Shown in pieces: positions 906 to 55,969 of a stretch of DNA of 64,000 nt. Every line of letters starts with the position of its first letter. Position 1 is the first letter of the stretch. Source of the DNA: Prorocentrum cordatum (Eukaryota); assembly GCA_963575745.1 (NCBI GenBank), contig CAUYUJ010000214.1:372001-436000 (forward strand), written 5' to 3'. The translations under genes were made by a program, and so were the position numbers. The notes under the pieces were generated by a model that did no database searches, had not been told where the DNA came from, and was given only the letters and a program-made list of their open reading frames with translations.

Positions 906-1442
906 CCCTGGCGCCGCGGCCGAGTCCGGCTCGGAAAACTCTGGCCAGAGCGCGCCCCAGAAGAGGTTACCGAGACCTGGGCGTCACAGTTTCTCCCGAA
1001 AGCAGCCGGTCTATGAGGGTCTCACAGGGCCTTCTTCTGCTGTGTTGGGGCCGTCTTGGGGGCCTTTGGGGCCGTCGTGGAGCGACCTTGAAGGCTTCGT
1101 GGGCAGGCTTGGAGGGTCTCCTGGGGACCTTGTTGGGGGCCTTTGTTGGGGAGGGGCCGTGATCCGGAATCGGTGGGGCGCCGTGGTCTGCCGTGGTCTC
1201 CCGTGGTCTGCCGTTGTTTCCAGTTGTCGACCTGATCACGCTCTGGATGTCTCCGAGCATGCCCCGCTCTCCGCGCCGCGGTGTCAAGCTGTTCAGAGGG
1301 TCTTCGGCCGCAGGGGTGTCGTTCATGTCGCAGCGGGCGTTTTGGCCCGGCTCCGGGGGCCCCGGGACTAGGGCAGAACGGTCTGGCGGGAAGAGATGCC
1401 GCAGAAAGGCAAGGGCCAGGGCTCCAGTCGTGATTCGTCGCG

Positions 1443-8714: not shown

Positions 8715-8872
8715 GGCAGGGACCGCGCGCGCCTTCACCTCGGGGTGCCCCTGCGCCCTGGCCCCCGCGGCCTGTCCCCTCTGCCGCTCCCGCGGGCCGC
8801 CCGTCGCCCGAAAGAGGTCCCAGCTGCGGCCTCCAAGGGGCCCTTGCGTCCTTCAGGAAAGGGGGAAACACA

Positions 8873-9076
8873 TTGGAAGCTTGGAAATTGGCACCAACAC
8901 CAACATCATGGGTTGCCTCCACGGGAGGAAGATGATCCTGGATTTTGGTGTTGGTGGTAATCTTTCGGCCACCTAGAAAGCCTGAATATTACCACCATCA
9001 CCTGGATCGGGATCATCTTCCCTCGGTGGAAGCACGCCGCCGATATTGGTATTGGTGTCAACCTCCAGGCCTCCCA
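8873..9076 (-). mobile_element. 204-bp palindromic MITE (Introner family), inverted copy of 44336-44539, 5-bp TSD ACACA
   Basis: Aligns end to end with the reverse complement of 44336-44539. ACACA is at 8868-8872 and 9077-9081. It is inserted in another repeat whose uninterrupted relative lies at ~60650-60804. Confidence 0.88.
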
Positions 9077-9329
9077 ACACAGACACAAGTCATCGTCGAT
9101 TCCCCTGAAAATATGGGAAACTATGGGAAGTGGGGGGGGGGGAGACAGAAACCCAGAAAATATTGGGAAACTATGGGGAAGCCTGTGATTTGTGTGTATT
9201 AATTTTTGTGTGTCCCAGGGTCCCTTCAGTCCTTACCACCCGTCCTGAGTACACGTTTGGACTGCACGCCTCAGCGCCCGCGGTCTGCGGAGCGGGGCTG
9301 GGTGGCGATGCCGTCTCCGAGGCGGGCAC

Positions 9330-11740: not shown

Positions 11741-12534
11741 TAAAAACACATGGATCCAGCTATGGGCAACCATGTTAGATACCCCCTGGGTGACCTGGAT
11801 ACGTAAAAACACATGCTGCTGGCCAGGTGGCCTGGACACTTCAACCATGTCAGGTACCTCCCTGGATGGCCTGGACACGTAAAAACACGTGGTGCCAGCT
11901 TGGGACAACCATGTTAGATACACCCCTGAGTGGCCTGGACACATTAAAACATGCGGTCCTTGCTCGGGACAATCATGTTAGATAATCCCCTGGGTGGCCT
12001 GGACACGTAGAAGCACGTGGTTCCAGTTTGGGGCAATCATGTTAAATACCCCATTGGGCGGCCTGGACACGTACAAACACATGGTTTCGGCTCGGGACAA
12101 CCATGTGAGATACCCCTTTGGATGTCCTGGGACCTCGTGGGGCCTCCTGGAGAGGGCCAATCTACAGGAACGCATTTAAAAACACACGGATTCGTGCCCC
12201 TGGAGAGGGCCAATCTATGGGAACACATGAAAAACACACGGATTCGTGCCCCTTGCCCAACTCTGTCCCGCACTTTGTGATTTTTCGATCGGGATTTCAA
12301 ACGCGAGCGTTTCGCCAGGGACATCCTCAATTGTTCCCTGCCGAATGGGACTTCAACTTGTTATTAATAGCCGATAATTCGCCGGCCGAAGCCGGGGGAA
12401 ACATAACGGTACTAGACGAGAACCTTGGGACCGCGCCCTTTCCGGGAACATGATCGACCCACGAACGCGGAAAGGAATGTAGAAATATATGGCATGGCGA
12501 CGTTTCAATACATGTGATTAGGCGACGGGCACAA

Positions 12535-13140
12535 GCAATGTTGAGTCGATCGATTTTGATGTACCGTGCCGAGAGCTGTGCTGTGCTGCGCCGTGCTGAA
12601 CTGTGATGTGCCATGCCGCGATTGTGCTCTATAGCGTTGTGGATCGCGTCTTCGTTTGCATCCGAGTCCTGACCGAATTGATCTGGATCTTAAGCTCGAG
12701 CTGCCTGAGCACATAGTAGCTGCACCAGAGCTAATTGACAGGGGGACATGCAAGGAGGACGCGCCGCGGCACGTCCCATTGGACGTGCAAGCGACGTCAG
12801 GGGGCGTGCCAGGGGGACGCACCGCGGGACGTGCCAAGGGAACGTGCTACGGAACGTGGCAATGGACGTGCCACGGGACGTGCGCGACGTGCCAGGGGGA
12901 TTCGCCACGGGACGTGCCACGGAACGTGCCAAGGAACGTACCAGGTTGCATTGTTGAGTGTATCGGTATTGATGTACCGTTCTGAGGGCTGTGCTGTGCT
13001 CCGCCGTACTGAACTGCGATGTGCCATGCCGCGATTGTGTTCTATAGTAGTGCTTTGGGTCGATTCCTCCTTTGCATCCGAGTCCTGACCGAACTGATTT
13101 GGATCTTGAGCTCGAGCTGCCTGAGCAGATAGTAGCTGCC
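12535..13140. repeat. Two ~186-bp direct repeats flanking a 12-bp (CCACGGGACGTG)-type array
   Basis: 12539-12724 and 12952-13140 are clearly homologous. Confidence 0.8.
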
Positions 13141-13638
13141 CCGGGTGTGAACCCATGTGAACCCATGTGTGTTCATGCTTGCCCCGCCCTGGGGCGTTAG
13201 GAACCATGTATTTTCAAGCTTGCTCCGCCATGGGGCGTTAGGAACCCATGTGTTTTCACGTATCTCCCGCCCTGGGGCATTCGGAACCCATGTGTTTTCA
13301 AGTTTGTCCCGCCCTGGGGCGAAAGAACCCATGTGTTTTCGCGCTTCCCCTGCCCAGGGGCGTTAGGAGCCCATATGTTTTCATGCTTGTCCCGCCCTGG
13401 GGCGTTAGGAGCCAGCTTCTCGGGCCTCCTGGGGCCTCCTGGGGGCTGGAGGGAAGCGAAAAGCCCTCCCCGAGCACATGTTCCAATACAGAACAGGATG
13501 CCCATGTTGGATATCCCCATGTGGGGCCTGGGCACGTTAAAGCACCTGGCTCCGCCATGCCAAATACCCCCTGTGCGGCCTGGACACGAAACCACGTGGT
13601 TCCAACTCGGGACAATCATATTAGAGAGAGCGTGATCC

Positions 13639-14415
13639 ACCGCCGCTTTACTGTGGAAAATTGCCGCCCTTTTCCTCCGGAACCGGGGGTTCCCCCCCCC
13701 CCCCCCCTCCGAAATCCCCCCCCCTGCTGGACCCCCCCCCCCCCCCCTTCCCCCGGCAAAACCCTCCCCCCCCTCCCCCTACCACCCCCCCCTCGAACTC
13801 GAAAACCGGAGGGGGGTCACTACCGGTTCGAACCCCCCCCCTCTCGAAAACCGGAGGGGGGGGTCACTACCGGTTCGAACCACTGAGCTGTCCCACTGTT
13901 CCCACCACTGTCCCCCTGTCCCTACCACTGTCCCCACTGTACCTCTGTCCATTGTCCCACCGCCGTCCTCGCCACCGCCTTCACCACTGTCCCCACCACC
14001 ACTGTACCCTCCACTGTCCTACTGTTTCCACCACATTCCCACTGTCCCCACACCACTGTCCCCACCACCACCGTCCCCACCACTGTCCCACTGTCCCCAC
14101 TGTCCCCACCATTGTCCTCACCATTGTCCCCACCACTACCGCCCCCACCACTGTCCCACTGTCCCCACCACTGTCCCGCTGTCCCCTCACCACTGTCCCC
14201 ACCACCACCGTCCCCACCACTGTCCGCACCCCCCCTCGGTTTTCGAGGGGGCGGGGGGGGGGGTTCGAACCGGTAGTGACCCCCCCCGGTTTTCGAGCTC
14301 GAGGGGGGGGGGGGGTTCGAACCGGTAGTGACCCCCCCCCTTTTCATGATGAATTGGGGGGGGGGGAGGGGTTCGAACCGGTAGTGACCCCCCCCTGTTT
14401 TCCGCCAGCAGCGGT
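13639..14415. mobile_element. Foldback/MITE-like insertion with internal (CACTGTCCC)-type minisatellite
   Basis: GGGGGTCACTACCGGTTCGAACC occurs twice on the left and its reverse complement three times on the right. Termini are ACCGCCGC..GGAAAA and TTTTCCGCCAGCAGCGGT. Confidence 0.7.
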
Positions 14416-17176
14416 AGAACATGCTCTTTCTCATATTAGATACCCCCTCTGGGTGGCCTGGACACGTGAGAACACGTGGGACCAGCTCTGGGCAACCATG
14501 TTAGATACACCCCTGGGTGGCCTGGACATGTTAAAACACGTGGCCCTTGTTCGGGACAACCATGTTGGATATCCCCCTGTGTGGCCAAGACACGTGAAAC
14601 ACTTGGTGCCAGCTCGGGACAACCATGTTAGGTACACCCGGGGGTAGCCTGGACACGTTAAAACACGTGATACTTGTTCAGGACAATCATGTTACCCCCG
14701 TGTGTGGCCTGGAGACGTGAGAACACGTGGTTCAAGCTCGGGACGACCAAATTAGATATCCCCTTGGGTGGCTTGGACACTTACAGAAACATTGTTCCAG
14801 CTCGGGACAACCATATTAGATACCCCCCTGGGTCCCAGCTCGGGGCAACCATGTTAGATATTTCCCTAGGTGGCCTGGACACGTAGAAACACGTGTTTCC
14901 AGCTCAGGACAACCAGTTCGGGAACACCATGTCAGATACACCCATGTGGCCTGGACACGTTCAAAATGCATGGTACTAGTTCGGTACCACCATGTTAGAT
15001 ACCCACCTGGGTTGCCTGGACACGTGAAAACACGTGGTTCCAGCTCGGGGCCACCATGTGAACTACCCCACCTGTGTTACCTGGACACACCAAAGCACGT
15101 GGTTCCATCTCGGGACCACCATGTTAGATACCCCCCTGGGTGGCCTGGACATGTGAACACACATGGCTCCAGCTCGCACGGGATGCACTTTTTCGACCAA
15201 CATGTGCCCCGCACCTTGTGATTTACCGATCGGGATTTCAAAACCAAGCGTTTCGCTAGGGACATCCTCAATTGTTCCACGCCGAATGGGACTGAACCTC
15301 GTTATTTATCGCAACTGGTATCGCTGGCCGAAATCGAAGGGGAACACTACTAAAAGAGAATCCTGGGCCCACGCCCTTTCCGGGAAAAACACGTGGTTCA
15401 AGTTCGGGACAACCATGTCAGATATCCCTTTGGGTGGCCTGGACATGTAAAAACAGATGGTTCCATCTCGGGACAACCATGTTAGATACCCCCTGGGTAG
15501 CCTGGACATGCGAAAACGCGTGCTGCCAGCTCGGGGCAACCTTGGTAGATATCCCTTTGGGTGGCCTGGACATGTACAAACACATGGTTCCAGCTTGGGA
15601 CAAGCATGTTAGATACCCCCCTGCGTGGCTTGGATACGCAATGTCTTCCCTGGAGAGGCCCCTTCAAGCGCCAACCCCTGTCCAGAACAAGAAAACCTCA
15701 CTCTTTCCGTATTGGCATCTGTGTTCGGGTAGCGCTTTGGGCCCCCCAGGCGTTTCCTGATAATTCTGCCCGACGCCATGTTAGATACCCCCTTGGGTGG
15801 CCTGGACACGGAAAAACACGTGGTTCCAGTTCGGGGCAATCATGTGAGATACCCCATTGGGTGGCCTGGACACGTAAACTCATTTGGATCCATCTCTGGG
15901 CAACCATGTTAGATACACCCCTGGTTGGCCTGGACACGTTAAAACACGTGGTCCTTACCCGGGACAACCATATTAGATACCCCAATGTGTGGCCTGGACA
16001 CGTAATAACACATGGTGCCACCTCGGGAAAATCATGTTAGATACACCCTTGCGTGGACTGGAAACGTTCAAACACGTGGTCGCTGCTCGGGACAAACATG
16101 TTAGATACCCCCATGTGTGGCCTGGACACGTTAAAACACGTGGTCCGTGCTCGGGGCAACCATGTTAGATACCCCAATGTGTGGCCTGGACGCGTAAAAA
16201 CACATGGTGCCACCTCGGGAAACCCATGTTAGATACACCCCTGCGTGGACTGGAAGCGTTCAAACACGTGGTCTTTGCTCGGGACAAACATGTTAGATAC
16301 CCCATGTGTGGCTTGGACACGTAAAAACTCATGGTGCCAGCTCGGGACAACCATGTTAGATACATTCTGGAGTGGCCTGGACAGTTGAAACACGCGGTCG
16401 TTGCTCGGGACAATGGTGTTAGATAATTGCCTGGGTGGCCTGAACACGTAAAAACGCAAAGTTCCAGTTCGGGGCAATCATGTTAGATACCCCACTTGGT
16501 GGCCTGGACAAGTAACAACACGTGGTTCCAGCTCGGGACAACCATGGTGGATACCCCCAGGGTGACCTGGGACCTCCTGGGGCCTCCTGGAGAGGGCCAA
16601 TATATAGGAACATACGTAAAAACATACGGATTCATGCCCCTGACCCAACCGTGCGCCGCGCTTTGTGATTTATCGATCGGGATTTCAAAAACCATCGTCT
16701 CGCTAGGGGCATCCTCAAATTGTCCTCGCCGAGTGGTACTTTACCTCGTTATCTCTCGCACATATTTTTGCTGGTCGAAACCAGGGGGAAACAACACAAT
16801 ACTAAACGAGAACCCTGGGCCCGCGCCATTTCCGGGAATATCCGTGCTGTGCGAAATCGGAAAAACGGGAATTGCATGCCCACGAGGGGGGCGGTGGCGG
16901 GTGAGGAGGAGGATGACTGGGAAGAGGAGGATGAGGACGAACAGCAGCAACAGGAACAAAAGCGGAAGGATATAGGGGAATGAGGCGACCAGGGAAAGGC
17001 GGAGGAGGGGAAATGAGGGGAGCGACACTGATGACGACAATTCGGATTCAGAAACGTGGCCCGCGCTGAAGCGAGACGAGAAGCAGCAGCAACAGGAATT
17101 GGGGTGGAAGGAGCCGGACGAACAGGAGGACTAGGGAAAAGCGGACCGCAGCGGAGCGGAGCGGCGCCGATGTCGC

Positions 17177-19729: not shown

Positions 19730-20435
19730 GAATTAAAATGGGATTAATTCAAACCGGGCGAAGTAAAATTGGATGAATTTAAACCGGACGAAATATAACC
19801 GGAGGAATTTATACCGGGCGAATTCAAGCTGAATTTAAACCGGACGAATTAGAACCGGATGAATTTCATCTGGGCGAGTTAAAACCGGATGAATTTAAAC
19901 CGAACGAATGAAAACCATATGAATTGAATGTGATCGATTAAAACCGGATGTTTTTTCTTGGCGAATTTAAACCGGACGTGTTTATAAACGGAATGGACCA
20001 AATAGACAACGCAAGCCACACAGTGGCACGCAGAGAACATTAGAACCGGATGATTTTAAATTAGACGGATTAAAACCGGATGAATTTAAATTGGGGGGAA
20101 TTCAAACCGGATGGATTTAAATTTGGGCGAATTTGAACCGGATGCATTTGAACCGGATGAAATGAAACGGATGACATTAAATTGATGAGATTGAACGGAT
20201 GCAGTTTAACTGATGTAATTGAATTCGAGTGAAACAACGGTGAATCCGTTTTGCGCCCCCTCATCCTCCTTCTATTCCCTTTCTGATTGTCCCTCCTTCT
20301 TTTTCATCCCTCCACAATCAAACAGTATGGGTGCTATTCTCTTTCCTCCATCGAAGTTTTGCGTAATGTCGATCTCCCACCCCGCGAAGTGTTTTTTACA
20401 CAGACGATGTCAACAACTGTTGTTTTACTTTTTTT
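19730..20435 (+). repeat. 15-bp satellite array with embedded unique spacer, followed by a dispersed repeat
   Basis: A homologous block lies at 24475-25090 with the shared spacer GAATGGA.CAAATAGACA....GCCACACAGTGGC. 20250-20435 matches 17950-18135. Confidence 0.8.
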
Positions 20436-20848
20436 TGATGCTGCAGACCAGACGAATTGGGGAAAAAACGATTCTTGTTCGCTTAAGAGTTTGCCTTCAC
20501 AGCCTGACCACACCAGGCACAAGTAGCGGTTGCGGCGGAACCTGTGGATTACCTTACAGGGTCAACGCCAACATCAAAGGCCTCAAATCGAGGGAAGGCC
20601 GGTACAGCCAAAGAGACGGCAACGAGCGGCAGCACGCAACGAAAGTGTCACGAAGTATGGTCCGCAAGTGCAGAAGGAGGAGGGAGGAGGACAGAAGGAA
20701 GGAGAGGAGGAGGAGGAGGAGGAGGAGGAGGAGGAGGAGGAGGAGGAGGGAGGAGGAGGAGCGAGGAGAGGAGGAGGAGGAGGAGGAGGAGGAGGAGAGG
20801 AGGAGGAGGAGGAGGAGGAGGGAGGAGGAGGGAGGAGGAGGGAGGAGG

Positions 20849-23800
20849 GCGTGGAATGCAAGCGACGTTCGAGTTGAGCTACCTTCCTTCGGCCTTCCAG
20901 AGGGAAGGATTCCAGTGACGGAGCGTGTAGCTCCAGAAGCTTTGCGGCACATCAGTTCCCGTTTTAAGAGACAGACATGTACCCCTGATGGGTTTCATCC
21001 AAGACATTACTCATTGTTATCAGATGGTGCGCTTCTTGCCCTTTCGTGGTTGTATCACTTGATCGATGTTCTGGGTCAGGGACCATCCAGGACTCAGCGA
21101 CTCATAGTATTTCTTATGAGTAAACCAGTGAAAGGGCGCCGACCTATTGGGCACTACTGTGGGTTTGCGAGGCTCCACGGCAAGACTCACAGAAATCCAT
21201 GTAGATCCTGGGAATCAAAAGTCGGGTTGGGCCCTGAGTTCTCCATGGGACAGGGCCGCAGCGCCCTCGACACGGTGTGGCGTCAGTCAGTGACGGCAGA
21301 GTTATATGCGGGACAGAAGATCCACTACGGGGCCCTCATGTGGGATTTGCTGCAATTCTACGAGCACATTTGCCATGAAGAGCTCCTCCAGCAAAGTATC
21401 TTGTCCGAGTTCCCGTTGTACATACTTTTATATACTATGTCGACGTATCGTTGGAAGAGAATTCTCCTTCTTGATGGGGCATATGGTGAACCCCTGTTCC
21501 CTTGCCGAGGGATCGTAGCGGGGTCCACGTCAGCCACCTACGAGGCCAAGTCGTTCCTCCTCCCCACCATTGTTGCACACAGGGGGCACGATTGTACGGG
21601 TTTGAGCTTACATGTCGATGATCTCTCTGTGCACGCATGGCATCAAAATGTAGATGATTGCGTTCAGCAATTACGAGACCTTGCGACCAGCTTGGCCTTT
21701 ATCATTTCGCAGAGATTGCGGGTGCCCCTAGCAGAGAAGAAGATGTTTGCCACTGCCAACAGCTCGACTCTCTTGGCCATGATCAAAGACAAGCTAGGGA
21801 CACTCGCAGGACAGGGTACTGTTGCACCAGCCAACCTTGGAGTGGATTTCGCAGGTGGGAAGCACCAGCTGCGGCCGTTCGCCCGCCTTGTCATGAAGAA
21901 GAGGGCCAAGAAATTCAAGTTTCGGATCTCTAAGCTCTCGGGTCTCAAGGTATCCACGAAGCTCAAGAAAAGGCTCTTCAAGGCTGGGATCCTCCCTACT
22001 GTCTCCTATGGGCTCGACATCCAGGGTGTGTCTCCAAGGGAACTTCTTTCTATTCGAAGGTCTGCTGGGCGAGTCTGTGGGATCAGTAAGAAAGGTTGCA
22101 ATTTGGACCTCCTGTGGGCCATCGAGGGCAAAGGCGACCCCATCATGCTGGCAGGCGGTTGTGTACGGAGATACTGCTGGGAATGGTGGCACAGTTCTGA
22201 AGTGAGTAGGCACGGGAGCCCTAGGCATCAAGATGCGCTATCTCCAGGTGTTTTAAGCAAAGCGTTTCACTCGAGTGTCGAAGTCTTCCAAGGGACTCGG
22301 GGAAAACCCTGGTTTTTTCGGACCCGTGGGCCGATGTCGGCCATGCTTCTCTGGCTCGAAGCTGGAGGATGGACCTGGGAGGGTCCCGCTGTGTTTCTGG
22401 TTCGGTCTGGACGGCGCTGGACTTTGACTGAATCCCCCCCGTCTCAGATTGGGGAAAAGTTTGTGGCCGATCTGGCCCAAGTGTTCCTGGACAAGTTTTT
22501 TACCAAGGGTCTTGAGATCCACTCGCATCCTGGCAACCAGGACTTGATTGATCGTGGGGTCTGGCTTCCCCTCTTGCAGCGCGTTGCCAGGAATTTAAGT
22601 AGTCAAGCGAAGCACTTGTATCTTCAGGTATTATCAGGTGCTTTACCGACTGGTGAGTCCCTCAGGAGATGGGGCTACGAAGTTGACGCCTCTTGTCCGA
22701 TGTGTGGAGCTGGACAGGACACCCTGAAGCACAGGTGTTGGGAATGTCAGCACCCTGATATTGTACGTCGTCGAGCTGAGCATTTCGGACCCGATCTTGT
22801 TCAGCAGGCTTTGGAATGTGATGAAAATATTCTCATTTTTTCCAGGCTGTGGCCGGCGTATCCTGATGTGCCCCCGCCAAGCAAGGACTGGTGTTTGAAG
22901 TTTTTCGGGGCCCAGGGCGAGCCTGTCGATGCGTTTGTGTTCGGGCCCGAAGCTGGCCTTTTCACGGACGGCTCCTGTTTCCACAACACTCGGCCCGAAA
23001 TCGCCAAGGCTGGGGTCTCTGTTGTCGAGATGGAAGACGACGGGACCTGCAGGAGGGGGGTCTATAGCCCTCTTCCCAGTGAATATGCCCAGACCCCTGG
23101 GGATGCAGAGCATGCTGCCCTGGCCTTAGCTGTGCTGAGGCAAGAACGTGCCGTCGAACCTCCCCCCAAGGCCATCTCCGTGGTCTGTTCGGCGTTGTTT
23201 GTGGGTGTGAGGTCTCCTGGCAGGGCCCTGGGGGGAGGTTCTCGTAGCAGCTTTTTCTGGAGGTCCATAGCTAGAGACATCGGAACTAGCAGTTGGATCT
23301 CTCTTCGCAAGGTAGCCGCCCACCGCAAGCTCCAAGACGCGGTGGACGAAAGCGATGCGCGGGACATTCAAGGATCTACGGCCGCCGACCACTGGGCGAA
23401 GTTAGGGGCTCGGGCCCACGACATTTCGCCTCAGGAGTTAGCCGACTTCGAAAATGCGGAGGGCGAGTATGGATCTTTAGTCGTAGGTGTCCTCGACATT
23501 TTATGTGGGTTCCCACCCTGTGAAGCCCAATTTGGGAAGCTGAAGCGGCCCCCTCGGGCCAAGAAGCCTCCCCGTTTAAAATCTGACCACGTACCAGTTT
23601 GGCACGGGAATATCCAGCGGTGTAAACGCTGTTTGCGTCAGGTGTCCTCGAAGACCCAGACCCCTTGCGGTGCCCTGAACCCTGCTCTGTCGGACCTCCT
23701 CTGTGGAGGCGGGGGCTCGGGGCATCACCTGCATTGGGCCCGAGTCGAAGAGAGTGATATGCCTGTTATTTATTGCGTCTCTTGTGGAGGATTTGCCACC

Positions 23801-24022
23801 AGCCGTGGCAGCGCTCTCCTCAGCAAATCGTGTGAGCCCCCTCGCAAGAGCTCGGAGCGTTCCAAGCTGTTACGGGGGCTCCACCCTGGGACCAAACACA
23901 GACTGGGCCAGTCGTTTCCCCTTTCCTCCCTTCCCTTTTTTCCTCTTCCTCCCCCCCTGCCCGCCCCTGCCTCGTCCTCCACGGCTGGTCCCAGTTCTGT
24001 TGGTCCCCCCTTTTCGTTGTAG
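20849..24022 (+). CDS. Reverse transcriptase-RNase H polyprotein, N-terminally truncated (the track start at 20219 is read-through of repeats)
   Basis: TPDGF, KPVKGRRPIG, WDLLQFYEHI, RGIVAGS, LHVDD (21611-21622), NLGVD. Zinc motif CPMCGAGQDTLKHRCWEC. RNase H: LFTDGS, QTPGDAEHAA, KVAAH, AADHWAK. Terminal CKRC and YCVSCG..C..HP. Confidence 0.9.
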   Translation, partial: AWNASDVRVELPSFGLPEGRIPVTERVAPEALRHISSRFKRQTCTPDGFHPRHYSLLSDGALLALSWLYHLIDVLGQGPSRTQRLIVFLMSKPVKGRRPIGHYCGFARLHGKTHRNPCRSWESKVGLGPEFSMGQGRSALDTVWRQSVTAELYAGQKIHYGALMWDLLQFYEHICHEELLQQSILSEFPLYILLYTMSTYRWKRILLLDGAYGEPLFPCRGIVAGSTSATYEAKSFLLPTIVAHRGHDCTGLSLHVDDLSVHAWHQNVDDCVQQLRDLATSLAFIISQRLRVPLAEKKMFATANSSTLLAMIKDKLGTLAGQGTVAPANLGVDFAGGKHQLRPFARLVMKKRAKKFKFRISKLSGLKVSTKLKKRLFKAGILPTVSYGLDIQGVSPRELLSIRRSAGRVCGISKKGCNLDLLWAIEGKGDPIMLAGGCVRRYCWEWWHSSEVSRHGSPRHQDALSPGVLSKAFHSSVEVFQGTRGKPWFFRTRGPMSAMLLWLEAGGWTWEGPAVFLVRSGRRWTLTESPPSQIGEKFVADLAQVFLDKFFTKGLEIHSHPGNQDLIDRGVWLPLLQRVARNLSSQAKHLYLQVLSGALPTGESLRRWGYEVDASCPMCGAGQDTLKHRCWECQHPDIVRRRAEHFGPDLVQQALECDENILIFSRLWPAYPDVPPPSKDWCLKFFGAQGEPVDAFVFGPEAGLFTDGSCFHNTRPEIAKAGVSVVEMEDDGTCRRGVYSPLPSEYAQTPGDAEHAALALAVLRQERAVEPPPKAISVVCSALFVGVRSPGRALGGGSRSSFFWRSIARDIGTSSWISLRKVAAHRKLQDAVDESDARDIQGSTAADHWAKLGARAHDISPQELADFENAEGEYGSLVVGVLDILCGFPPCEAQFGKLKRPPRAKKPPRLKSDHVPVWHGNIQRCKRCLRQVSSKTQTPCGALNPALSDLLCGGGGSGHHLHWARVEESDMPVIYCVSCGGFATSRGSALLSKSCEPPRKSSERSKLLRGLHPGTKHRLGQSFPLSSLPFFPLPPPLPAPASSSTAGPSSVGPPFSL

Positions 24023-27096: not shown

Positions 27097-27318
27097 GGCC
27101 TCCTAGATGGGGTCGGAGCAGATGGGGTCGGAGGATTGCGCCGCATCGCCGATGCATCGCCGATGCGGCTCGATGTGGAGCCCGATTTGCCTCACGCGGA
27201 CGGCGCCGATGCATCGCCGATGCATCGCCGATGCATCGCCGGTGCATCGGCGATGCATCGCCGAGGCATCGCCGATGCGGCGCGCCCTCCGACCCATCTA
27301 CTCCGACCCCATCTAGGA
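27097..27318. mobile_element. MITE with TIR CCTAGATGGGGTCGGAG.AGATGGG and internal (GCATCGCCGAT)n
   Basis: The right end CCTCCGACCCATCTACTCCGACCCCATCTAGG is the inverse of the left. A second copy is at 54879-55078 and a partial one at ~17755-17830. Confidence 0.85.
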
Positions 27319-27360: not shown

Positions 27361-30194
27361 GGTCGCCCCCCCCCCCAGCACCCCCAAACCACCAAAACCA
27401 CAAAATCTTCACTGATCGTTTCTCCTCGTCGCTCTCCTCCTCAAACCACAAAATCTTCACTGATCGTTTCTCCTCGTCGCTCTCCTCCTCCTCCTCCTCC
27501 TCCTCCTCTCCTCCTCGTCCTCCTCCTCCTCCTCCTCCTCCTCCTCCTCCTCCTCCTCCTCCTCCTCCTCCTCCTCTGGGGGACGCCCGAGACAGGCCCG
27601 ACTGAAGGTTTCCATCCGCTGCGCCTCGCCGAGGGCGCCCCGGGTGGCGCCAGCAGCGTCCCGCCACGGCCGCTCGAGGCCCGCCAGCCAGGGCCCGCGG
27701 GCCACGAGGAGGGCCCCCGGCTCCTGCGGGAGGCATCGGGCCTCCCACCTCCTCAATTCTCCTCCTCCTCCTCCTCCCCCCCCCTCCCCCCTCCTCTCCT
27801 CCTCCTCCTCCCTCCTCTCCCTCCTCCTCCTCCTCCTCCTCCTCCTCCTCCTCCTCCTCCTCCTCCTCCTCCTCCCCCTCCCCCTCCCCCTCCTCCTCGT
27901 CCTCCTGGGGTCCGAGCACGGTCCCGACAGCTTGCTTGGCGTGTCGCGTCGTCGGTTCCGGTCCACCACGCCTCGGCGCGACACGCTCGCCGCGTCCCAG
28001 TCCCCAAGCGTCAGCTTCCCGACCTTCTCCCAGCCGCCCGCCACGCGGAGCGGAGCGACATGCTATCGCATGCAGGGCACAGCGCGTCGCTGGGGCCTCC
28101 TCCCCCCTCCTCCCCCTCCTCCCCCTCTCCTCCTCCTCCTCCTCCTCCTCCTCCTCCTCCTCCTCCTCCTCCTCCTCCCCCTCCCCCTCCTCCTCCTCCT
28201 CCTCCTCCTCCTCCTCCTCCTCCTCCTCCTCCTCCTCCCTTCCTCCTCCACAATTACTCAATATGAATACTACTCTCCCTCTTCCCCTGATGACGTCTTG
28301 GGTCCCCCCCCCCGCGTACTGTTTTTTTACACACAGGTTTCCCTGGAGTTGGGTTTTCGTTTGCATTTTTGTCCAACATGCTGTTCTCGCTGAAGCGCCG
28401 GCCTCATTTTCGGGCCCCGCTCGTTCCGAATCATGCTCCCGCTGCAGCGCTGACATCATTTCCGCCAGCGCCCGGGCTGCACGCCCGAGCCGTCGCCCGG
28501 GCCGGCGCTCGAGCCGGGTCCGGAGCCGGTTCCGGCCGGCGCCGGAAAATCGAGTTCCGAGGCGGCGCCGAAAAAAGGCCATTCCAACACAATTGTTTTT
28601 GAAAATGCTGAGTTTCTGCTTCTGGCGCCCGGGAAGCCTTCCCCGGAGTTAGGTTTTCGCCGGCATTTTTTCCCAAAATGCTGCTCTCGCTGAGGCGCCG
28701 GCCTCATTTTCGGGCCCCGCTCGTTCCGAATCGTGCTCTCGCTGCAGCGCTGGCCTCATTTCCGTGCTTCCGCTCGTTCCGACTCGTGACGAGTCGAAAC
28801 GAGCGGCAGCGCTGGCGTCATTTCCCGTGCCATGCCACGGCATGCAATGCAATGCTCGGTTGATACTACGCTTCGCGGTGCTCTTCTACGCCATACCATG
28901 CCGTGCTCTACAATGCATCGCGTACCCTTTCGGGATCATCGCCCTGCTTGACATCCGACTGTGCGAGTAGAGAGGGGATCTGCGCCATGGTAAGGGATGG
29001 GAGGGATGGGTAGGATGTCAGATATGACGCGAGCGCACCTAGCTTGTCCTCCCCCCTCCCCCTCCCCCTCCTCCTCCTCCTCCTCCTCCTCCTCCTCCTC
29101 CTCCTCCTCCCCCTCCCCTCCTCCTCCGCCGCCGCGACACGCGTAGCAAAAGTTCCCGACCGCAGATGGGATCGGATGATCGCACCGCGCTGCCGATGCC
29201 CTGCGATGTGGCGCAATGTGGCTCCCCTTTTTCTCGACGTCGACGGTGGCGGAGCATCGCCAACGTCGCCAATGCACAGGGGATGCATCGGCGAGCTTCC
29301 CCCTGGAGAGTGTGTCCGATCGCTCCGGGTCCCTCGGGGTTGGCAGTCCGACCACGGTCCCATGGTTTGCTTGTTGCTTTGCGGCCAGCACCGCGCTATC
29401 CCCCTCGTCTCGGGTGTTGCTAGAAGTGCTCCTGGCCCAAGGTGCCACCAGGATTTCCAAGGAGGTCCCCACGGCCTCCAGAGCACCCCTCACGAGGCCA
29501 AGAGGGCCCCAGGAGCTTCAACATTAGGCGAAAAGCTGTGGGCACATTGAGCCAGGGGCACTTTGAGCAACCCCCGATCGTCTGGTGCGCCCAGATCTCG
29601 TCAACAATCGGATAGGATTCCGAAAAATATTTGGGTGACAGGCCAGTGGAAGGCGGGCTCGCAGGAGGTTCGGGCTCCCGCAAAGGGTGTGTGTGCGCCG
29701 GGGTATGTGTGAGTTCGATCGGTTTTTGCACCGAACCACCCCAGACAGATGCCCCCCAGCCGCCCGCAGCTCCCGATAGTTTCGGATAGGTGGGGCATGT
29801 GGGGGGCATCTGTTTTCAGCAGTTCGGCGCACCAACGGATCGAACTCATGCCCCCGTCAGGGTCCCCCCCGCCCGTTTTGGCCGATCCCGACAGGTGAAG
29901 GATCAGATTGCGAAGAATATTGGAGACCAGACGGTGGAGCATAGAACCGAGATCTTCCGGGCGCAGATTCAAGCGTATTATGCCAAGTGGGTGCCAATTG
30001 GCTCCAACATACGCTATCTTTCGGTGGCACATCCTGGGAGCCTGGCATGCCCTCTGAGTCTCCGTCTTTAGCGTTGGCTAGCGTCGGGGAGTCGAAGATA
30101 TAGCGCCGATGTGGCGTCGGTTAGCGTCGAACTAGCGTCGATTAGCGTCGACTCGGGTTGATTAGCGTCGAGTCGCAAGAGCCGACAAGATGGT

Positions 30195-30995
30195 ATGGGA
30201 GGCTCCCATGAGATGCCACCGAACTGTCTAACAGATGAGGATATGGACGACTCGGTTCGCAAGATCTCCATGTTACTGGCAGCGAAAGGCATCACAGATG
30301 TGGATAAAGCCTATTTCAATCTCCGTCCAGGTGCATTCCGAGCTGATGTTTGGAGGCTCATGCAGCTATGGGCTGAAGGCGGTGTATACTTGGACGCAAA
30401 CATAAACCTCACGCATGAACTAACCTATTGGATCGATTTCTCCAACGATGAGCTAGTAGTCGTTAGGGACACAGGCGTGAAAGATGGCATTTGGAATGCG
30501 ATGATGGCGGCTGAGCAAGGTAACCAGTACCTTCAGAATGCACTTGCGGACATCACTAGCCATATCCTCACACATTATTACGGGACAAATCCATTGGCAA
30601 TTACAGGTCCGATTGCGTTGGGCTCATCATTCATGAAAGATCACAGATACCCCAATGGCTTACGCCGCGAACTTGAATGGAAAGGCGGAAAAGTTAACAA
30701 CACAAAGACGGCAGAGGTTGTGGCGCAAAAAGATGAAAAGTTGCACGACAAGGACCCGAGCAAGCACTACGATCCGATGTGGCGCCACCACCAGGTGTAC
30801 TGCGACCAGAAGGGGCCTACACCCGACAACGGCAAGTGCCCAGAGGGATCCTGGAAGAACGCGGACGGGAGCGTCAAGTACGTCGACCATGTGGTTCATC
30901 ACAGCACCGTCGCGAGCCATGCGGGACATCAGGCCGCAAGCCACGGCTACGAGACCCGACGGCGCAGATTCACCCGCCACATGACGACACGATGA
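30195..30995 (+). CDS. Glycosyltransferase family 32-like (DxD sugar-binding, OCH1/SUR1-like) segment; N-terminus missing or in upstream exons
   Basis: Motifs TDEDM, AFRADVWRLMQLWAEGGVYLDAN, IWNAMMAA and AITGPIALG match the GT32 pattern D..R...L...GG.Y.D.D/N...TGP. Confidence 0.8.
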   Translation: MGGSHEMPPNCLTDEDMDDSVRKISMLLAAKGITDVDKAYFNLRPGAFRADVWRLMQLWAEGGVYLDANINLTHELTYWIDFSNDELVVVRDTGVKDGIWNAMMAAEQGNQYLQNALADITSHILTHYYGTNPLAITGPIALGSSFMKDHRYPNGLRRELEWKGGKVNNTKTAEVVAQKDEKLHDKDPSKHYDPMWRHHQVYCDQKGPTPDNGKCPEGSWKNADGSVKYVDHVVHHSTVASHAGHQAASHGYETRRRRFTRHMTTR

Positions 30996-34213: not shown

Positions 34214-34297
34214 CTTGAGCCCAAATGGCGGAGCCACCGGGCTCTGAACCAAACGGCAATGGGCCAGGCACCTGGCATGAGCCAAAATGGCTACGGA
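34214..34297 (-). other. Stacked dinoflagellate spliced-leader (DinoSL) sequences
   Basis: Full SL at 34297-34276 (1 mismatch). Degenerate GCCGTTTGGTTCAGA at 34257-34243. Relic GCCATTTGGGCTCAAG at 34229-34214 (15/16). Confidence 0.88.
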
Positions 34298-41850: not shown

Positions 41851-43352
41851 CCCCGCTGCCAAACCGCCGCCGCCGCCGCAGCCGCTGCCGCCACCGCTAC
41901 CGCCGCCGCCGCAGCCGCAGCCGCAGCCGCCGCCGCAGCCGCCGCCCCCGCCGCCGCCGCCGCCGCCGCAGCCGCCGCAGCCGCCGCCACCGCCGCCGCA
42001 GCCGCCGCCGCCGCCGCCGCCAAGTGTACTCTGTATTGTTTTTTGACAGGGATGGTGGGGGGGGCCGTATCGGGTTGGCTGCGCATGTTCCGAACTTGGA
42101 GGCAGAGTGTGTTTTGTAGTGTTTTTTACAAGGGATGGTGGGGGGTTGTCGGCATGGAGTCGGGTTGGCCCCCAGTCGCCTGGGGGAGGGGGTGTTTATC
42201 AATAGGGAACAGAAACCCCTCCCCGAAGGGGAAGAGGGATGGCTTTGAAGAGGAAACGCCCTAAACCACCGACGCCCAGAGGGCTGGTGGGATTCGCCGC
42301 CAGGGTGCCGAACTTACGAAATCCTGCGTGCTCGCCCACGAAACGCCCGAACCCAGAGACGGCGCCGCAGGGCCACAGGCAACCGAAAGACAGGCCCAAG
42401 AGGGGCGCAACAAAGCTTCCAAGAGAGGCCGGAACAGGCCTTCTGTATCATTCCAAAAGCCCAGAGGTCTGATATCGGTGGGAATCGCCTCGAAGGCCTT
42501 CTCGAAGCCCTTCCTCGGCCTTCTTGGGATTTTCCTTTGGCCCCAAAAACGACCCAGTGGGGCTCTTGACAGTTCCACGAGAGCTCCAAGAGGGGCCCAG
42601 AAAAAGAGCTCCCGTGAGTGGCCCCAAGAAGGGCCGCGGCCGATATAGTTTCGTAGCAAGGTCCCTGTTCTGATGTCGTTGGGGGACCTCTGGGGGGCCA
42701 GGCTGGGCCCTCTTGGGCCTCCTTGGAGCTTCTTGCCTCTGGCGCGGCGTGGCCCAAGGCAACTCCAAGAGAGCTCCAAGAATTGTTCCAGAGGGCCTTC
42801 AAGAGGAGCCCATAATGGCCCGTAGCGACACTATACGAACGGCCCGTGGTGTGAGACCGTCGTGGGCCGCTCCGGGGGCTTCCTGGGGACTTTCCGATGG
42901 CCCCAGGGATTGCCCGAGAGAGCCCCAGACAGCCCCAGGAAAGCTCAGAGAAGGGCCCCAAAGAGTTCCCCAAAGGGGAGCGAGAAGGCGCTCAACAATA
43001 TCGTACCAAGAGCACGTGGTACGATATATAGTTGGGGGGCCCTCTTGAGGGCCCTATTCCCTATTGGGCCTCTTGGGGCTGTCCTCTGGCATGAAAAACA
43101 GCCTAGGAGGGCTTCAGGTAGCTCCAGTTAAGCTCCAAGAGGGCGTAACGTTTTCTGATGCTGGACATACGTAGTTTCCACCACATCGTCTGGTTCACAC
43201 AGGTTGCACACACATCACACCAGAATTTCGTGTTCAGGGCAAGGGGGGCAGAAGAGGCCCGAGTGGACCACGCAGGATTGCAATATCGCCAACATTCACT
43301 TCTTCCGCGGCCCAGGGGAAAGAGCGGGGAGTACGAGGAGGGGGTCCGCAAC

Positions 43353-43369
43353 CAGCCGTTTCGGCTCAA
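43353..43369 (+). other. Relic spliced leader upstream of the kinase gene
   Basis: AGCCGTTTCGGCTCAAG versus SL 3' part AGCCATTTTGGCTCAAG (15/17), ending 77 nt before the ATG. Confidence 0.55.
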
Positions 43370-43446
43370 GAGGAGCCGTTCCGGTATATGGCCCTGCGCT
43401 GCCGCGGGGCAGCGCGAGTCTTCGCATCATCGCTGGGTCTTGAGCC

Positions 43447-45137
43447 ATGGGAACCAGGGAGCTGCGGCTGCCGCCGGCGTCCAGCCGAGCAGCTGTAGAG
43501 AGCTATGTCTCGCGCGTGGCCCCGCAGCTGCCCCCGGACGTTGCCTTTGCCACGCTGGTGCCGTGGAGCTCTCCGCAGCGACCGAGCAGGCTCGCCACAC
43601 CAGACTCTGCGGCTCAAGGCCGTTGGGACCCAGAGGGGATCGCGGACCTGGCGTCCGAGTGCACCAGCTTGCTGGTGCCATGCACGTTCGAAACGCGGTA
43701 CGAGAAGCGGTTGATGAAGAAGTTGTTGGAGCAGCTCGAGCCGCACCGTGACATCTGCGTGTACGTTCTGCAGCTCCTCGAGGTCGCGGGCCAGATCACC
43801 CGAGAGTACGTGCAGACGGTCATGGCGCGCCACGACGCGCTCCTGGCCGTCGGTGCCAACGCTGTGCTGCTGGATCCTACCGACAATCCAGATCGGCTGC
43901 TCCAGAATCTCGACCAAGAGCGGGCTTGGTTCGAAGCGAATGCGCTGCGTGCAAAATCGATGGTCGACTGCAACGACGACTATTTCCAGTCTGTGCTGGA
44001 CCATCACCACGAGCTGCTATGGGAGAGCGTCCCGAAAGCTCTGATGCGAAATTTCGACCCCATCGATCGCAACCTCGTGGAAACGGCCAACAGGGTGGGC
44101 GATTACAAGATGACCAATCGCTTCAGCTCGAGGAGCGGGAAAGACGTCCTGCTTGCCGAGCGGAGCGAATCCGAGAAGGTCGTCCTCAAGGTCTACAACA
44201 AGTGGGACCATCCGTCTGCCGGGGACCTGGAGTGCATCTACCGCGAGCTGCGGTTCCTGCGGGACGTGCTGCGGCACCCGCACATCGCCCGCTGCACCGA
44301 CATGAACCACAGCTTCTCTCGGGTGTACTTGGTTTTCGGAGTCCTAGAGATTGACACCAACACCAAGATCGGCGGTGTGCCTCCACCGAGGGAAGACGAT
44401 CCCGATCTCGGTGATGGTGGCAATATTCTGGCTCCCAAGGGGGCCGAAATATTGCCACCAGCACCGAAGTCTAAGATCATCATCTCCCTGTGGAGGCAAA
44501 CCCCTGTCCTGGTGTTGGTGCCAATTTCCAGGCCTCCCAGGTTTTCGAACTGGGGGGCATGCAGAATCTGCACCAGCGCCTCCTGGACCAGCCGGGGTAC
44601 CGCCTCGATCTGGAGGATGCCGTGGACTGCACGGTGCAGGTGGCAGGAGCGCTGGCCTACTGCCACTCGCGGGACATCGTGCACAGGCAGGTGTGTCTGG
44701 AGCACATCGTCGTGGAGGACCAGTCCGAGGCGCCTTTCTGCCGCCTGGTGGACTTCTACCAGGCGACGCGCTGCCCAGAGGCGACACCGCTGGCCACGAC
44801 GTGCGGGGACCTGCCGTGCATCGCTCCCGAGGTGGCCCTGGATGAGTCGTACGTCGCCAAGCCTGCGGACTGCTGGAGTCTCGGGGTGGTGCTCCTCGAG
44901 GCCGCCGGGGGCCTGGGCTCGATGCGGCAGGCGGTCGGCTGGCCGGAGGAGGCGGAGCTGGAGCCCACGGCCAGAAGGATCAAGAACTTCTTCTCCGGCG
45001 AGGGGAGCCACGCTCGCGCACTGGCGGTCATGGGCGGCGTGCGCAGCGAGGCCGTGCTGGCCAACCTGTCTGCACTCCTCGAGCCGACGCCCACGGCTCG
45101 GGCGAGCATGGACGCCATCGCACAGTTCTCCGCCTAG
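43447..45137 (+). CDS. Ser/Thr protein kinase-like (probable pseudokinase), 493 aa; exons 43447-44331 and 44541-45137
   Basis: VVLKVY, IYRELRFL..LRHPHI, then across the splice junction RVYL|VFELGG, LAYCHSRDIVHRQVCLEH, LVDFY, CGDLPCIAPE, ADCWSLGVVLLE, PTARAS. Removing GT..AG 44332-44540 joins track ORFs 43447 and 44490 in frame. Confidence 0.88.
44336..44539 (+). mobile_element. Introner: 204-bp palindromic MITE forming the phase-0 intron 44332-44540; 5-bp TSD GGTTT
   Basis: The whole element is an imperfect inverted repeat. GGTTT is at 44331-44335 and 44540-44544. The donor GT comes from the left TSD; the acceptor CAG is the terminal CA plus the first G of the right TSD. Confidence 0.9.
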
Positions 45138-45465
45138 CTTCGCGGCGCCTCGGCAGGCCCTGAGGGCTGGAGCGAGGAAGAGCACCGCGGCCTGTGCTCG
45201 GCTTCTCCTTGCGCTTGGTGTGATCCGTGGAGTTTCGTTCTCCAAGCAACGTGGGCGTCTTGGCACTGATTTCGGTAGATTCGAGCAGAGCGTGCCCACC
45301 TCATCCGGCCTGCGACGGGGACAGAGCCTTGTTAAGGATCTCCCACCCAAGAGTGGTTTAACCTTTCCGAGGTGATTGCATCGTGCTCAGGCTTGACCTG
45401 GTCCCCACAGCCCTGCCACCACCACTCCTCCTCCTCCTCCTCCTCCTCCTCCTCCTCCTTCGATC

Positions 45466-47547
<2,082 letters not shown>

Positions 47548-48769
47548 CCTCCTCCTCCTCCTCCTCATCCTCCTACTCCGCCTCCTCTTCTCCTTCTTCT
47601 CCTCCTCCTCCTCCAGCTCTCCCTCCTATTGCTCGGCATCATCCTCTCCCCTCCACCTCCTCATAGGCATCCTTCTGTTTATCGTCCTCATCCGTCTCTT
47701 CCTCCTGCTCTCCTCCTTCACCTCCTTCAATGGCTGCATCTGGCGAGTTGGCGAGCTGAAGGCGTCATGATCCGTCGGATGCCGCACTTCCCTCACAGCG
47801 CCAGTCGGCCTTGAATGGGCGTACTGATGAATATCCCTACAATGGGTGTGCTGACTTTTTCGCGGGATGGGCTGCGCTGGCCTGCGTTCTGCCTGAAGCT
47901 TCTGTTAGACAAGTCCTCGAGCAGGACTCCTTGGCCCATTCCGTCGTGTGTAGGCTCTTGGCAGAGGTACACTGCACTCACATCTATACCCCTGGGTGGG
48001 TGTATGTGCGGCCGTTTTTGCGCTGTCATGTGCGCGCATGTGCGCGGCATGTGCCAGTCATGTGCCAGGCCTGTGCGGTCCTTCTTGGATGGACTTCCTA
48101 CTGTGCACGTCGTGCCCGGGCATGTGCGGGGGCATGTGCGCTGTGTTTTGATGTATCCATCATACGCACATGCACGCACAGTCCGACGCACATGCGCGCA
48201 CATGCCTGCACATGCGGGAGGTGTTCGAGAATCGCAGATCTGTCATCGGCACATGCACGCACATGCCTGTGCAACCTCTCTTCGGGAGGCCGCGCGGGCC
48301 CGCACATGCACGCACATGCGGTGAAGCGCGCGGGCGCACATGCGTGCACATCCCAATGCACATGCACGCTCATGCCCTAGGAGCTGTCTGGGACCCCTGT
48401 GCCTCCAATGTTTCCTGGCCTTCGCAGAGCTAACCTGGGGCGCGCCAGGGCTTCCTGAAAGAGTTTGTTGTGCGTTTAGACTCGCCCGCTGCTGGCGACG
48501 GCGGTTCTTCGCCCGGTTCGTGAGCTGGCGGTGGCGCGCCCGCCTAATAAAACACTCTCCCGCGCGCCTTCTCAGCTCGGCCGGAGAAACAGGGACGGGG
48601 GGGGGGAGGTGGAAGGGGGGGGAGGAGGGGGGGGCGGAGGAGGCGGGCGCCCCCGGCTCGGCCGGCCCGCCTGCCTGTTCGGCTCGGCCAGAGGAGAAGG
48701 AGGAGGAGGAGGAGGAGGAGGAGGAGGAGGAGGAGGAAGAGGAGGAGGAGGAGGAGGAGGAGGAGGAGG

Positions 48770-52899: not shown

Positions 52900-53895
52900 G
52901 GTGTAAACCCAAGAGGCATCAACGATGTTGGAATAAACCCTCCCTCCAAGCTCCCTCTTCATAGGCCCCTATAACGGTTCATGTTACTGAGAGGACTGCT
53001 TCGTTGGAAGACAATTGTTCAAAGACCCTGAAGCATGCCAAAACATTGTTTTCGGGATTCCACCGCTACGGATCAACCTTACCGTTGCGCCTTGGCGATC
53101 CTGAATCGTGCTAGCACGCCATTCCTGGGATTCGAACACCGCCAACCAACATAACTTGTGCACCCTTAAAAGCATGAATCCTTCCAAAGCGCCGTTTCTG
53201 GCACGTTGATCATGGGAGTCAGGGAAGGTCCTGCATAGGTTTAACACGAATGTGCGCGGCGCTAAGGCGAGAGCCACATTTTGAAAACCACCCGCCCTCA
53301 ATATGTGAAGCTCATGCAGTTGTTCAAAAGCGAGTGTGCGCCGCGCTACGGCGAGAGCCACACTTTGAAAACGACTTGCCCTCAAACCATGGAATTCTAG
53401 CAAATCTTTAGGACGAATGTGCGCGGCGCTAAGGCGAGAGCCACATTTTGAAAAAAGGATGCGCTTTCAATCCGTGAAACTCTTAGAATGGTTTGAAATG
53501 AATGTGCTCGGCGCTCAGGCGAGAGCCACATTTTGAAAAGGAACCGCGCTCAATCCGTGAAGCTCTTACAAGTTGTTTAAACGAATATGCGCGACGCTGA
53601 GGCGAGAGCCATATTTTGATAAGGAACCGCAATCAATCCGTGAAACCCTTGCAATTGTTTTACAACGAGTGCGCGCGGCGCTAAGGCGAGAGCCACATGT
53701 TGAAAACGACCCGCCCTCCATCTGTGAAACTGTTGCCAGTTTTGAAGATTCAGAAGCATAAGTGGTAAGGAAGTCTCAGGCGAAACGCCCGGCCCGCCCT
53801 AAAAACTGGCCTGAGGCCAGTTTTTAGGGCGGGCCGGGCGCACCCCGAGGGCCTCGGGTTGCGACAGGGAGAAGTTATCTACAAGGAGAAGAAAT
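52900..53895 (+). mobile_element. Second copy of the ~900-bp GAG-bounded element, containing a perfect palindrome with 27-bp arms
   Basis: See 51185-52070; palindrome at 53786-53840. Confidence 0.8.
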
Positions 53896-55078: not shown

Positions 55079-55969
55079 TCTAGGAGGGGAGGAGGCCTCT
55101 AGGAGGCTTCCCTCGCATCTCCTTTGGCTGGAGCTGCATCTGCTTCACCCCTCCCGCTTGTGTTCTCATCGAGGATCTTTTTTGGACTGCCTGACCTGAC
55201 GTGAACTCATGACCCTCGTCCATCCCTTCTGGATTACTCCTCCCCGTTGCACCCCCAGACGTGCCAGTGGGGCGTGCCGGCGGGTTCGCCTTAGTTTTCC
55301 TCACCAGTTGTGGTCCTGAAGCTGGAAAGCGGCAACAGTTACGAGGATTGACAACCAGGCTTTCTCATAATGGGGCTCTCGTGCTGGCGCCGCGCACCTT
55401 TGCCGTGTAAGAGCTTGCTTCAGTGTGGCGGATGGAGCACTGGTGGTTTTCAGAATGAGCTCTCGCCTCAGCGCCGCGCATATTCGTCTTGTGTTGCAAC
55501 AGCTGCAAGGATGGAGGGGGCTGGTGTTCAAAATGCGCTCTTGCCCCAGCGCTGCGCGCTGCCGTGTGAAGCTTGCAGCCATTACAAGGATGGAGGGCGG
55601 TCCTTTTCAAATTGGCGCTTTCGCTGTAGCGCCGCGCACATTCGCTTTAAACTTTTGCAACACATACAGAGGTGGATGATTATTCCTTCTTCAACATGTG
55701 GCTTTCGCATGTGGCATCCTTGAAATTAAGAGCCAAAGCCTTGAACAGCCATAGCAGCTGCACGGATGGAGGACGATCATGTTCTGAAATGGTGTTCCCG
55801 CGTAAGAGTTCGTCTAACAAGTCCATGGCAAGAAATGTGTAACCAGGAAAGATCGCTTCCGTGTAATAGCACGTAGTGACATCCTCCGTGAACTTCCGAC
55901 GTTTGTTGCCATTTGGGCTCAGGCGTTTGGCCGTTTCGAACAAAAGGTTGGGCGCCGATGTTGGGCCGT

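Follow-up and report, generated by a model that had tools for sequence, protein, structure and literature searches.

The stretch of DNA analysed here (the window) comprises 64 kb of the Prorocentrum cordatum genome and has a G+C content of 59.0%, which agrees with the 59.7% reported for this species (10.1101/2022.07.25.501386). It carries a protein kinase gene with two coding exons on the forward strand. Exon 1 (43447–44331) encodes 295 aa from the ATG to the residues SRVYL, and exon 2 (44541–45137) encodes 198 aa and the stop codon, starts with VFELGG and represents the kinase C-lobe. Exon 2 alone matched the Pfam profile Pkinase with an E-value of 5.3e-18 (profile positions 77–258 of 263). 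For exon 1 alone no Pfam match was obtained at E ≤ 0.01; precomputed Pkinase domains are present in relatives of the full-length protein. Directly past the 3' end of the gene we noticed about 2.4 kb of trinucleotide-type simple repeats (45336–47770) with homopolymer-like runs in all frames.

Both exons are separated by 209 nt (44332–44540) beginning with GT and ending with AG, and excision of this segment joins ...SRVYL to VFELGG... in phase 0. A search with exon 1 returned 16 proteins. The best match, P0002, has 493 aa, is 100% identical over the query and is named in its source records as Prorocentrum cordatum unnamed protein product or protein kinase domain-containing protein. P0002 equals exon 1 plus exon 2 exactly (295 + 198 = 493), thus the public gene model already removes exactly 44332–44540 and contains no other intron in the coding sequence. 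The junction SRVYL/VFELGG (a slash marks the splice point throughout) is free of gaps in 10 of 10 aligned relatives, which are 34–83% identical to P0002. Insertion and splicing together therefore leave the kinase coding sequence unchanged, and the restored reading frame claimed in the initial annotation of this DNA is borne out by the translation, by P0002 and by the relatives.

A palindromic element present twice in the window

Apart from 5 nt the intron consists of a 204-bp element, copy A (44336–44539, forward strand), with the sequence TCGGAGTCC...GGCCTCCCA. It is flanked by the direct repeat GGTTT upstream (44331–44335) and downstream (44540–44544), so that the local arrangement reads ...TACTTG GTTT / TCGGAGTCC...GGCCTCCCA / GGTTT TCGAA..., the slashes here marking the element's borders. 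Bases 2 and 3 of the upstream GGTTT (GT, 44332–44333) form the 5' splice site. The last A of the element (44539) and the first G of the downstream GGTTT (44540) form the 3' AG. The perfect direct repeat around copy A extends further and comprises 8 bp, GGTTTTCG (44331–44338 and 44540–44547).

Inverted repeats (I1–I3) tile both halves of copy A along the whole length. When aligned to its own reverse complement, 156 of 202 positions match, making the element an imperfect palindrome. As RNA, 44332–44540 folds into one continuous long hairpin with a minimum free energy of -127.7 kcal/mol. The mean of dinucleotide-shuffled sequences is -66.4 (sd 4.5), corresponding to a z-score of -13.5, and none of 200 shuffles folded as well. 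The imperfect palindrome between GGTTT repeats, which had been noted from the sequence at first sight, is confirmed by these data. Across the intron one frame per strand is free of stop codons in copy A. Comparison of 44200–44700 with Rfam gave four weak matches at E ≤ 1, all far under the gathering scores (the best, MIR842, with 30.4 bits against a gathering score of 85 bits), which we read as generic hairpin resemblance.

Using BLASTN with the element against the window we detected a second copy on the reverse strand (8867–9080, 81.9% identity over 215 nt). By alignment the limits of this copy B were set to 8873–9076, again 204 bp. It lies in low-complexity, apparently non-coding sequence, and of the two full copies in the window copy A alone is shown to be an intron. 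Copy A matches copy B at 169 of 203 positions (83.3%) when copy B is reversed and at 148 of 202 in the forward direction. Since the reversed match is the better one, the ancestor must already have been an imperfect palindrome whose two orientations could be told apart. Copy B is flanked by ACACA on both sides (8868–8872 and 9077–9081), in the same register as GGTTT around copy A. The chance of a 5-bp match in a fixed register is about 1 in 1,000.

The exact terminal motif occurs in the window at the two copies only. The search for terminal motifs gave 28 matches compared to 4.3 expected, 24 of them inside an unrelated 64-bp satellite at approximately 11.8–16.5 kb. This satellite array (11787–16508, unit ...CCTGGGTGGCCTGGACACGT...) has a core that resembles the element terminus by chance and inflates the motif counts. 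The window furthermore contains other imperfect or near-perfect palindromes of 45–218 nt at 27101–27318 (with the ends CTAGATGGGGTCGGAG.../...CTCCGACCCCATCTAG), 29710–29848, 28766–28810 and 53786–53840. They are unrelated in sequence to the element and may represent other MITE or foldback families.

Splicing of the element in RNA-derived contigs

The 1,541-nt stretch 43600–45140 is contained in 20 listed public sequencing runs. The highest share of its sampled words found in any of these runs was 0.85, approximately the share expected from exons only. One run from each of four studies (X1, X4, X7 and X12) was aligned to 42100–45330 at 90% likeness; stretches upstream of 43354 that lack contig cover were left out of the evidence. 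All alignments were made with Logan contigs, not with reads. X4 is on record as polyA RNA, X1 was guessed to be RNA, and for X7 and X12 the records do not state the kind.

Each of the four runs includes one contig in which 44330 is joined directly to 44540, with 209 nt skipped. The shorter sides of these four contigs measure 43, 186, 43 and 240 letters. At the joint the alignment leaves 8 letters ambiguous, the same as the 8-bp repeat; once the cut is moved by +1 the ends become GT..AG and the intron 44332–44540 results. The predicted junction, TACTTG/GTTTTCGAA, is thus the one present in the RNA-derived contigs of all four runs aligned. The X1 contig spanning the joint (record 4, 499 nt) has no differences from the window on either side, compared to two in an X12 contig (record 11, 585 nt). 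Judging from these contigs, with X4 the only run on record as RNA, virtually the entire intron consists of the element, which is absent from the joined RNA form. Removal of the element plus one target-site duplication as a scarless GT..AG intron, as initially proposed, hence agrees with the contigs, P0002 and the 10 of 10 gap-free relatives. This confirms that a dinoflagellate protein kinase gene carries a 204-bp hairpin mobile element that is cut out exactly as an intron.

Contigs alone give neither the splicing efficiency nor a separation between splicing and transcripts of an insertion-free allele or identical paralogue. We therefore considered that the joined RNA might come from such an allele or from a near-identical kinase duplicate, the copy in the window being an unspliced, disrupted gene. 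The contigs show the existence of a joined form only, owing to the 8-bp overlap a spliced product looks the same as an empty site, and no DNA run is among the 20 runs containing 43600–45140. Dinoflagellate genes are also highly duplicated, and 16 relatives of the kinase were found. However, the flanks show 0 differences over 499 nt, while across the exon 1 query even the nearest paralogue reaches just 78% identity. Although the frame is shifted by the 209-nt insert, exon 2 retains an intact, conserved frame of 198 aa. The intron boundaries, which the public gene model uses as well, are canonical GT..AG. Moreover, copy A differs from the commonest contig variant of the element at several positions (44367, 44397 and 44421 among them) and diverges by 17% from copy B, which argues that the insertion is not brand new. 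Taking both sides together we regard an origin of the joined RNA from another allele or duplicate as very unlikely.

The RNA contigs also bear on the history of the kinase gene. At 43354–43370 (forward strand), 77 nt upstream of the kinase ATG, we found a sequence resembling a relict dinoflagellate spliced leader, AGCCGTTTCGGCTCAAG, and contigs of X4 and X12 start at 43354/43355. The spliced leader is reported as DCCGUAGCCAUUUUGGCUCAAG (PMC6050394), and AGCCGTTTCGGCTCAAG agrees with its 3' part at 15 of 17 positions. Compared to the 15-nt relict core, 43356–43370 shows 2 mismatches, which for one short motif is moderate support. The core was matched seven times in the window at ≤3 mismatches, with 1.67 expected, and 1 of 100 shuffles reached seven. 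Relict leaders of this kind mark genes retroposed from mRNA, which suggests that the kinase gene is a retrogene. The leader tag and the presence of just one intron within the coding sequence are in line with retroposition first and intron gain later. Since retrogenes bearing introns exist (PMC6050394), the case for this order of events is suggestive only. Further leader-like motifs with 1–2 mismatches are located at 34214–34228 and 34276–34290 on the reverse strand and at 55909–55923 on the forward strand; the reverse-strand pair is 62 nt apart, as expected of a twice-retroposed gene. In addition, a segment of about 80 nt upstream of the kinase gene (42213–42295) recurs with differing flanks in numerous RNA contigs, in every one of the four runs, and represents another repeated, transcribed element.

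Mobility, target-site duplication and termini

Besides the joint-spanning contigs, the runs contain contigs that carry the element with unlike flanks. The loose ends begin at 44336 in three X7 contigs and at 44332 in one X1 contig, and stop at 44537 in three X7 contigs. A family variant with T instead of G at 44367 is found in 3, 6, 17 and 7 contigs of X4, X1, X7 and X12, respectively, and one X1 contig contains an internally deleted variant. Searching with the translated element we found three further P. cordatum proteins among 80 candidates. An exhaustive protein search gave 19 cluster representatives with translated copies at E ≤ 1e-3, seven of these at E ≤ 1e-10. In public P. cordatum gene models copies of the element are read as coding sequence (P0018, P0019, P0020, P0021 and P0033); such copies have either been exonised or are introns that were annotated wrongly. 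A scan of metagenomes with a degenerate pattern of the arms gave three loci and no further full copy or duplication. Two of them (L001, L003) contain a 53-nt arm fragment only (84.9% identity), and the third (L002) was rejected, being just a 22–26-nt match in unrelated, bacterial-looking sequence. The same pattern gave no loci in viral contigs.

With two 204-bp copies in the window, a variant present in up to 17 contigs of one run and 19 protein representatives, the element belongs to a repeated family. It is short (204 bp) and non-coding, has terminal inverted repeats and shows a 5-bp duplication around both full copies, as is characteristic of MITEs. The description as a multi-copy, palindromic, non-autonomous element is thus supported by copy B, by the contigs with unlike flanks and by the translated copies, and we conclude that the element is a transposon. 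An ordinary old intron that folds into a hairpin by chance, with no transposition involved, would account for the splicing of 44332–44540, the sole point in favour of this reading. It is contradicted by the second 204-bp copy with different flanks and a duplication of its own, by the many RNA contigs in which the element has other flanks, and by the translated copies in other P. cordatum proteins on other contigs, so that we consider its probability negligible.

The length of the duplication deserves a closer look, since the perfect repeat GGTTTTCG around copy A has 8 bp. If the element made 8-bp duplications, it would resemble hAT-like elements or, in Polarella glacialis, the GHN6 classes. 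In this case the duplication would begin with the 5' splice site, and the 3' AG would be internal to the element. Classes of GHN6 with 8 nt that work in both orientations have been described by Roy et al. (10.1101/2020.10.14.339549). Against this, the repeats of copy B in the same register agree at the first 5 of 8 positions only, followed by three consecutive mismatches. In addition, the symmetry of the inverted repeats extends in both copies as far as the terminal T and A (by manual count, 9 of the 12 terminal positions are complementary in each), and in the three X7 contigs mentioned above the likeness to copy A starts at 44336. An 8-bp duplication is accordingly unlikely. On the basis of the copy B match and the symmetry up to the terminal T and A we take the target-site duplication to be 5 bp, which is the probable length, the additional TCG at copy A then being due to chance; this is the better fit rather than a proof. 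Of the 5-bp flanking repeat initially described, the length is thus backed by copy B in the same register, while at copy A itself the repeat runs to 8 bp.

The four arm ends of the two copies are TCGGA, TGGGA, TTGGA and TGGGA. T...A termini are therefore found in all four arms and TG...CA in two. Consensus ends of TG...CA, as first suggested, hold for these two arms, but copy A starts with TC, not TG. Because the 5' GT lies wholly in the duplication and the 3' AG is made of the terminal A and the G of the duplication, the reverse orientation also ends in A plus G. Judging from the sequence, the element should accordingly work in either orientation, as anticipated, with T...A in four of four arms; among the copies at hand no reverse-oriented one is intronic.

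TG...CA ends and the 5-bp duplication had also been taken to indicate a mobiliser of the integrase type (LTR- or Ginger-like). Ginger and Gypsy elements have TGTNR termini (PMC2836005), whereas those of the element are TNGGR, with G at position 3 in four of four arms. Duplications of 4 or 5 bp, as found in 2 of 2 copies, are in line with such a mobiliser and are not specific to this superfamily. Of 133 long ORFs in the window, 39 (≥200 aa) were scanned against Pfam, and none of these contains an integrase or transposase domain. Likewise, no longer copy with the same termini that could represent the cognate autonomous element or encode an integrase is present within the 64-kb window. An integrase-type mobiliser is therefore not supported by our data. 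Ginger and LTR-integrase transposons resemble the element in duplication length (4–5 bp for Ginger2/TDD, 3–6 bp for LTR elements) and in TG...CA-like ends (PMC2836005, PMC10045372). They differ in the TGTNR ends as opposed to TNGGR, and in their integrase, for which no coding copy was found in the window. Targets differ as well: Ginger1 makes 4-bp CCGG duplications and Ginger2 duplications of 4 or 5 bp with a preference for AT-rich RTATAY targets (PMC2836005, PMC10045372), while the targets here are GGTTT and ACACA.

As to other ORFs of the window, a zf-RVT match in an ORF of 1267 aa (20219–24019, forward strand) points to a retroelement of the reverse-transcriptase type. An ORF of 1617 aa (1434–6284, forward strand) gave no Pfam match at E ≤ 1e-4, and the ORF at 30162–30992 contains a glycosyltransferase motif (Pfam).

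Proposed mechanism and relation to known introners

Taken together, the kinase intron very probably arose from a MITE-type introner, a 204-bp non-autonomous DNA transposon with terminal inverted repeats, that inserted into an exon of the P. cordatum kinase gene and is spliced scarlessly. The element would have inserted into the coding exon at the target GGTTT and duplicated it. The spliceosome would treat the element plus one duplication as an intron, using G/GT of the upstream duplication as 5' splice site and the terminal A of the element with the first G of the downstream duplication as 3' AG. Exactly 209 nt would thereby be removed and the original codons restored in phase 0 with no scar. 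Mobilisation presumably takes place in trans by a putative transposase making 5-bp staggered cuts. The long hairpin may bring the two splice sites together, and the T...A termini would allow either orientation to work. Intronic copies may be what selection leaves of insertions that have no strict target preference, as the ACACA around copy B would suggest.

A far-reaching version of this model postulates an uncatalogued introner lineage with 5-bp duplication and T...A termini that, whichever way it is oriented, gives rise to introns without a scar at any GG(T/C/A)NN and may have spread beyond Prorocentrum. We see only a slim chance that this holds. Of the ten protein representatives with translated copies that were looked up, seven (P0022–P0028) belong to a EukProt transcriptome whose label names the green alga Pyramimonas sp. 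CCMP1952. Their composition is rich in Arg, Ala and Pro, like high-GC Prorocentrum sequence, and contamination or mislabelling seems likelier than horizontal spread. Strain CCMP1952 was not mentioned in any paper found by our literature search. Were the label correct and contamination not the cause, an element that generates introns would have passed horizontally between a dinoflagellate and a prasinophyte.

Introners that generate introns in the manner of MITEs were reportedly described by Huff et al. in 2016 for Micromonas and Aureococcus, with one splice site in the element and the other one derived from the duplication. Some of these algal introners are said to work in both orientations. 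They reportedly differ from the kinase element in lineage and in duplication length, and some families are said to add codons. A generalisation of the introner mechanism across eukaryotes has been presented by Gozashti et al. (PMC9860276, PMC12130899). The word Prorocentrum does not occur in the main texts of these two papers or in 12 of the 14 supplementary files of PMC12130899.

For P. cordatum itself introner elements have been counted before. Farhat et al. defined introner elements in Amoebophrya by inverted repeats of 8–20 nt and direct repeats of 3–5 nt (PMC7789003). Dougan et al. applied this pattern to P. cordatum and found introner elements in 2.4% of introns, in 8,934 genes (PMC10666404, 10.1101/2022.07.25.501386). 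The kinase intron fits their description, with inverted repeats near both ends, border direct repeats of 3–5 nt and a predicted hairpin. Many of the Amoebophrya cases are non-canonical introns (PMC7789003), whereas the kinase intron is GT..AG. Both studies used a generic pattern search, and sequence families, duplication registers and evidence for individual copies are absent from the parts of these publications covered. We found no family-level description of Prorocentrum introners in the introner literature on dinoflagellates and Prorocentrum that we searched; the kinase gene may nonetheless be named among the genes of Additional File 3 (PMC10666404) or in the bioRxiv supplements.

The closest parallel are the introner-like elements described by Roy et al. 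for Symbiodinium and Polarella glacialis (10.1101/2020.10.14.339549), whose inverted repeats end at the 3' splice site and whose direct repeats provide the 5' site. In P. glacialis they form 15 classes with duplications of 3, 4, 5 or 8 nt, are active in single or double orientation, and have their splice sites in the duplication, in the element or across the border. Like the kinase element they are DNA transposons that are non-autonomous, end in inverted repeats and duplicate their target site. In both cases the duplication gives the 5' G/GH, the 3' AG is provided or completed by the end of the element, and no scar is left. The 3' splice site of their elements is followed by GH, and exon 2 of the kinase starts with GT. 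Unlike those elements, as judged from their description, the kinase element comes from another species and is a palindrome throughout. The register differs, too. Here it is 5 bp, G-GT-NN, with a terminal A contributed by the element, whereas in class 12, the only 5-nt class described by Roy et al., the 3' site lies inside the duplication (NAGGH or NNAGG).

The mechanism is thus already in print for dinoflagellates, introner elements have already been counted in P. cordatum, and the picture of how introners work is unchanged by our analysis. The kinase gene adds a clean example, at the level of a single copy, of intron gain by a transposon with an exact junction backed by RNA evidence. For P. 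cordatum, in which introners had previously been counted by a generic pattern only, it also defines a concrete sequence family together with its splice-site register.
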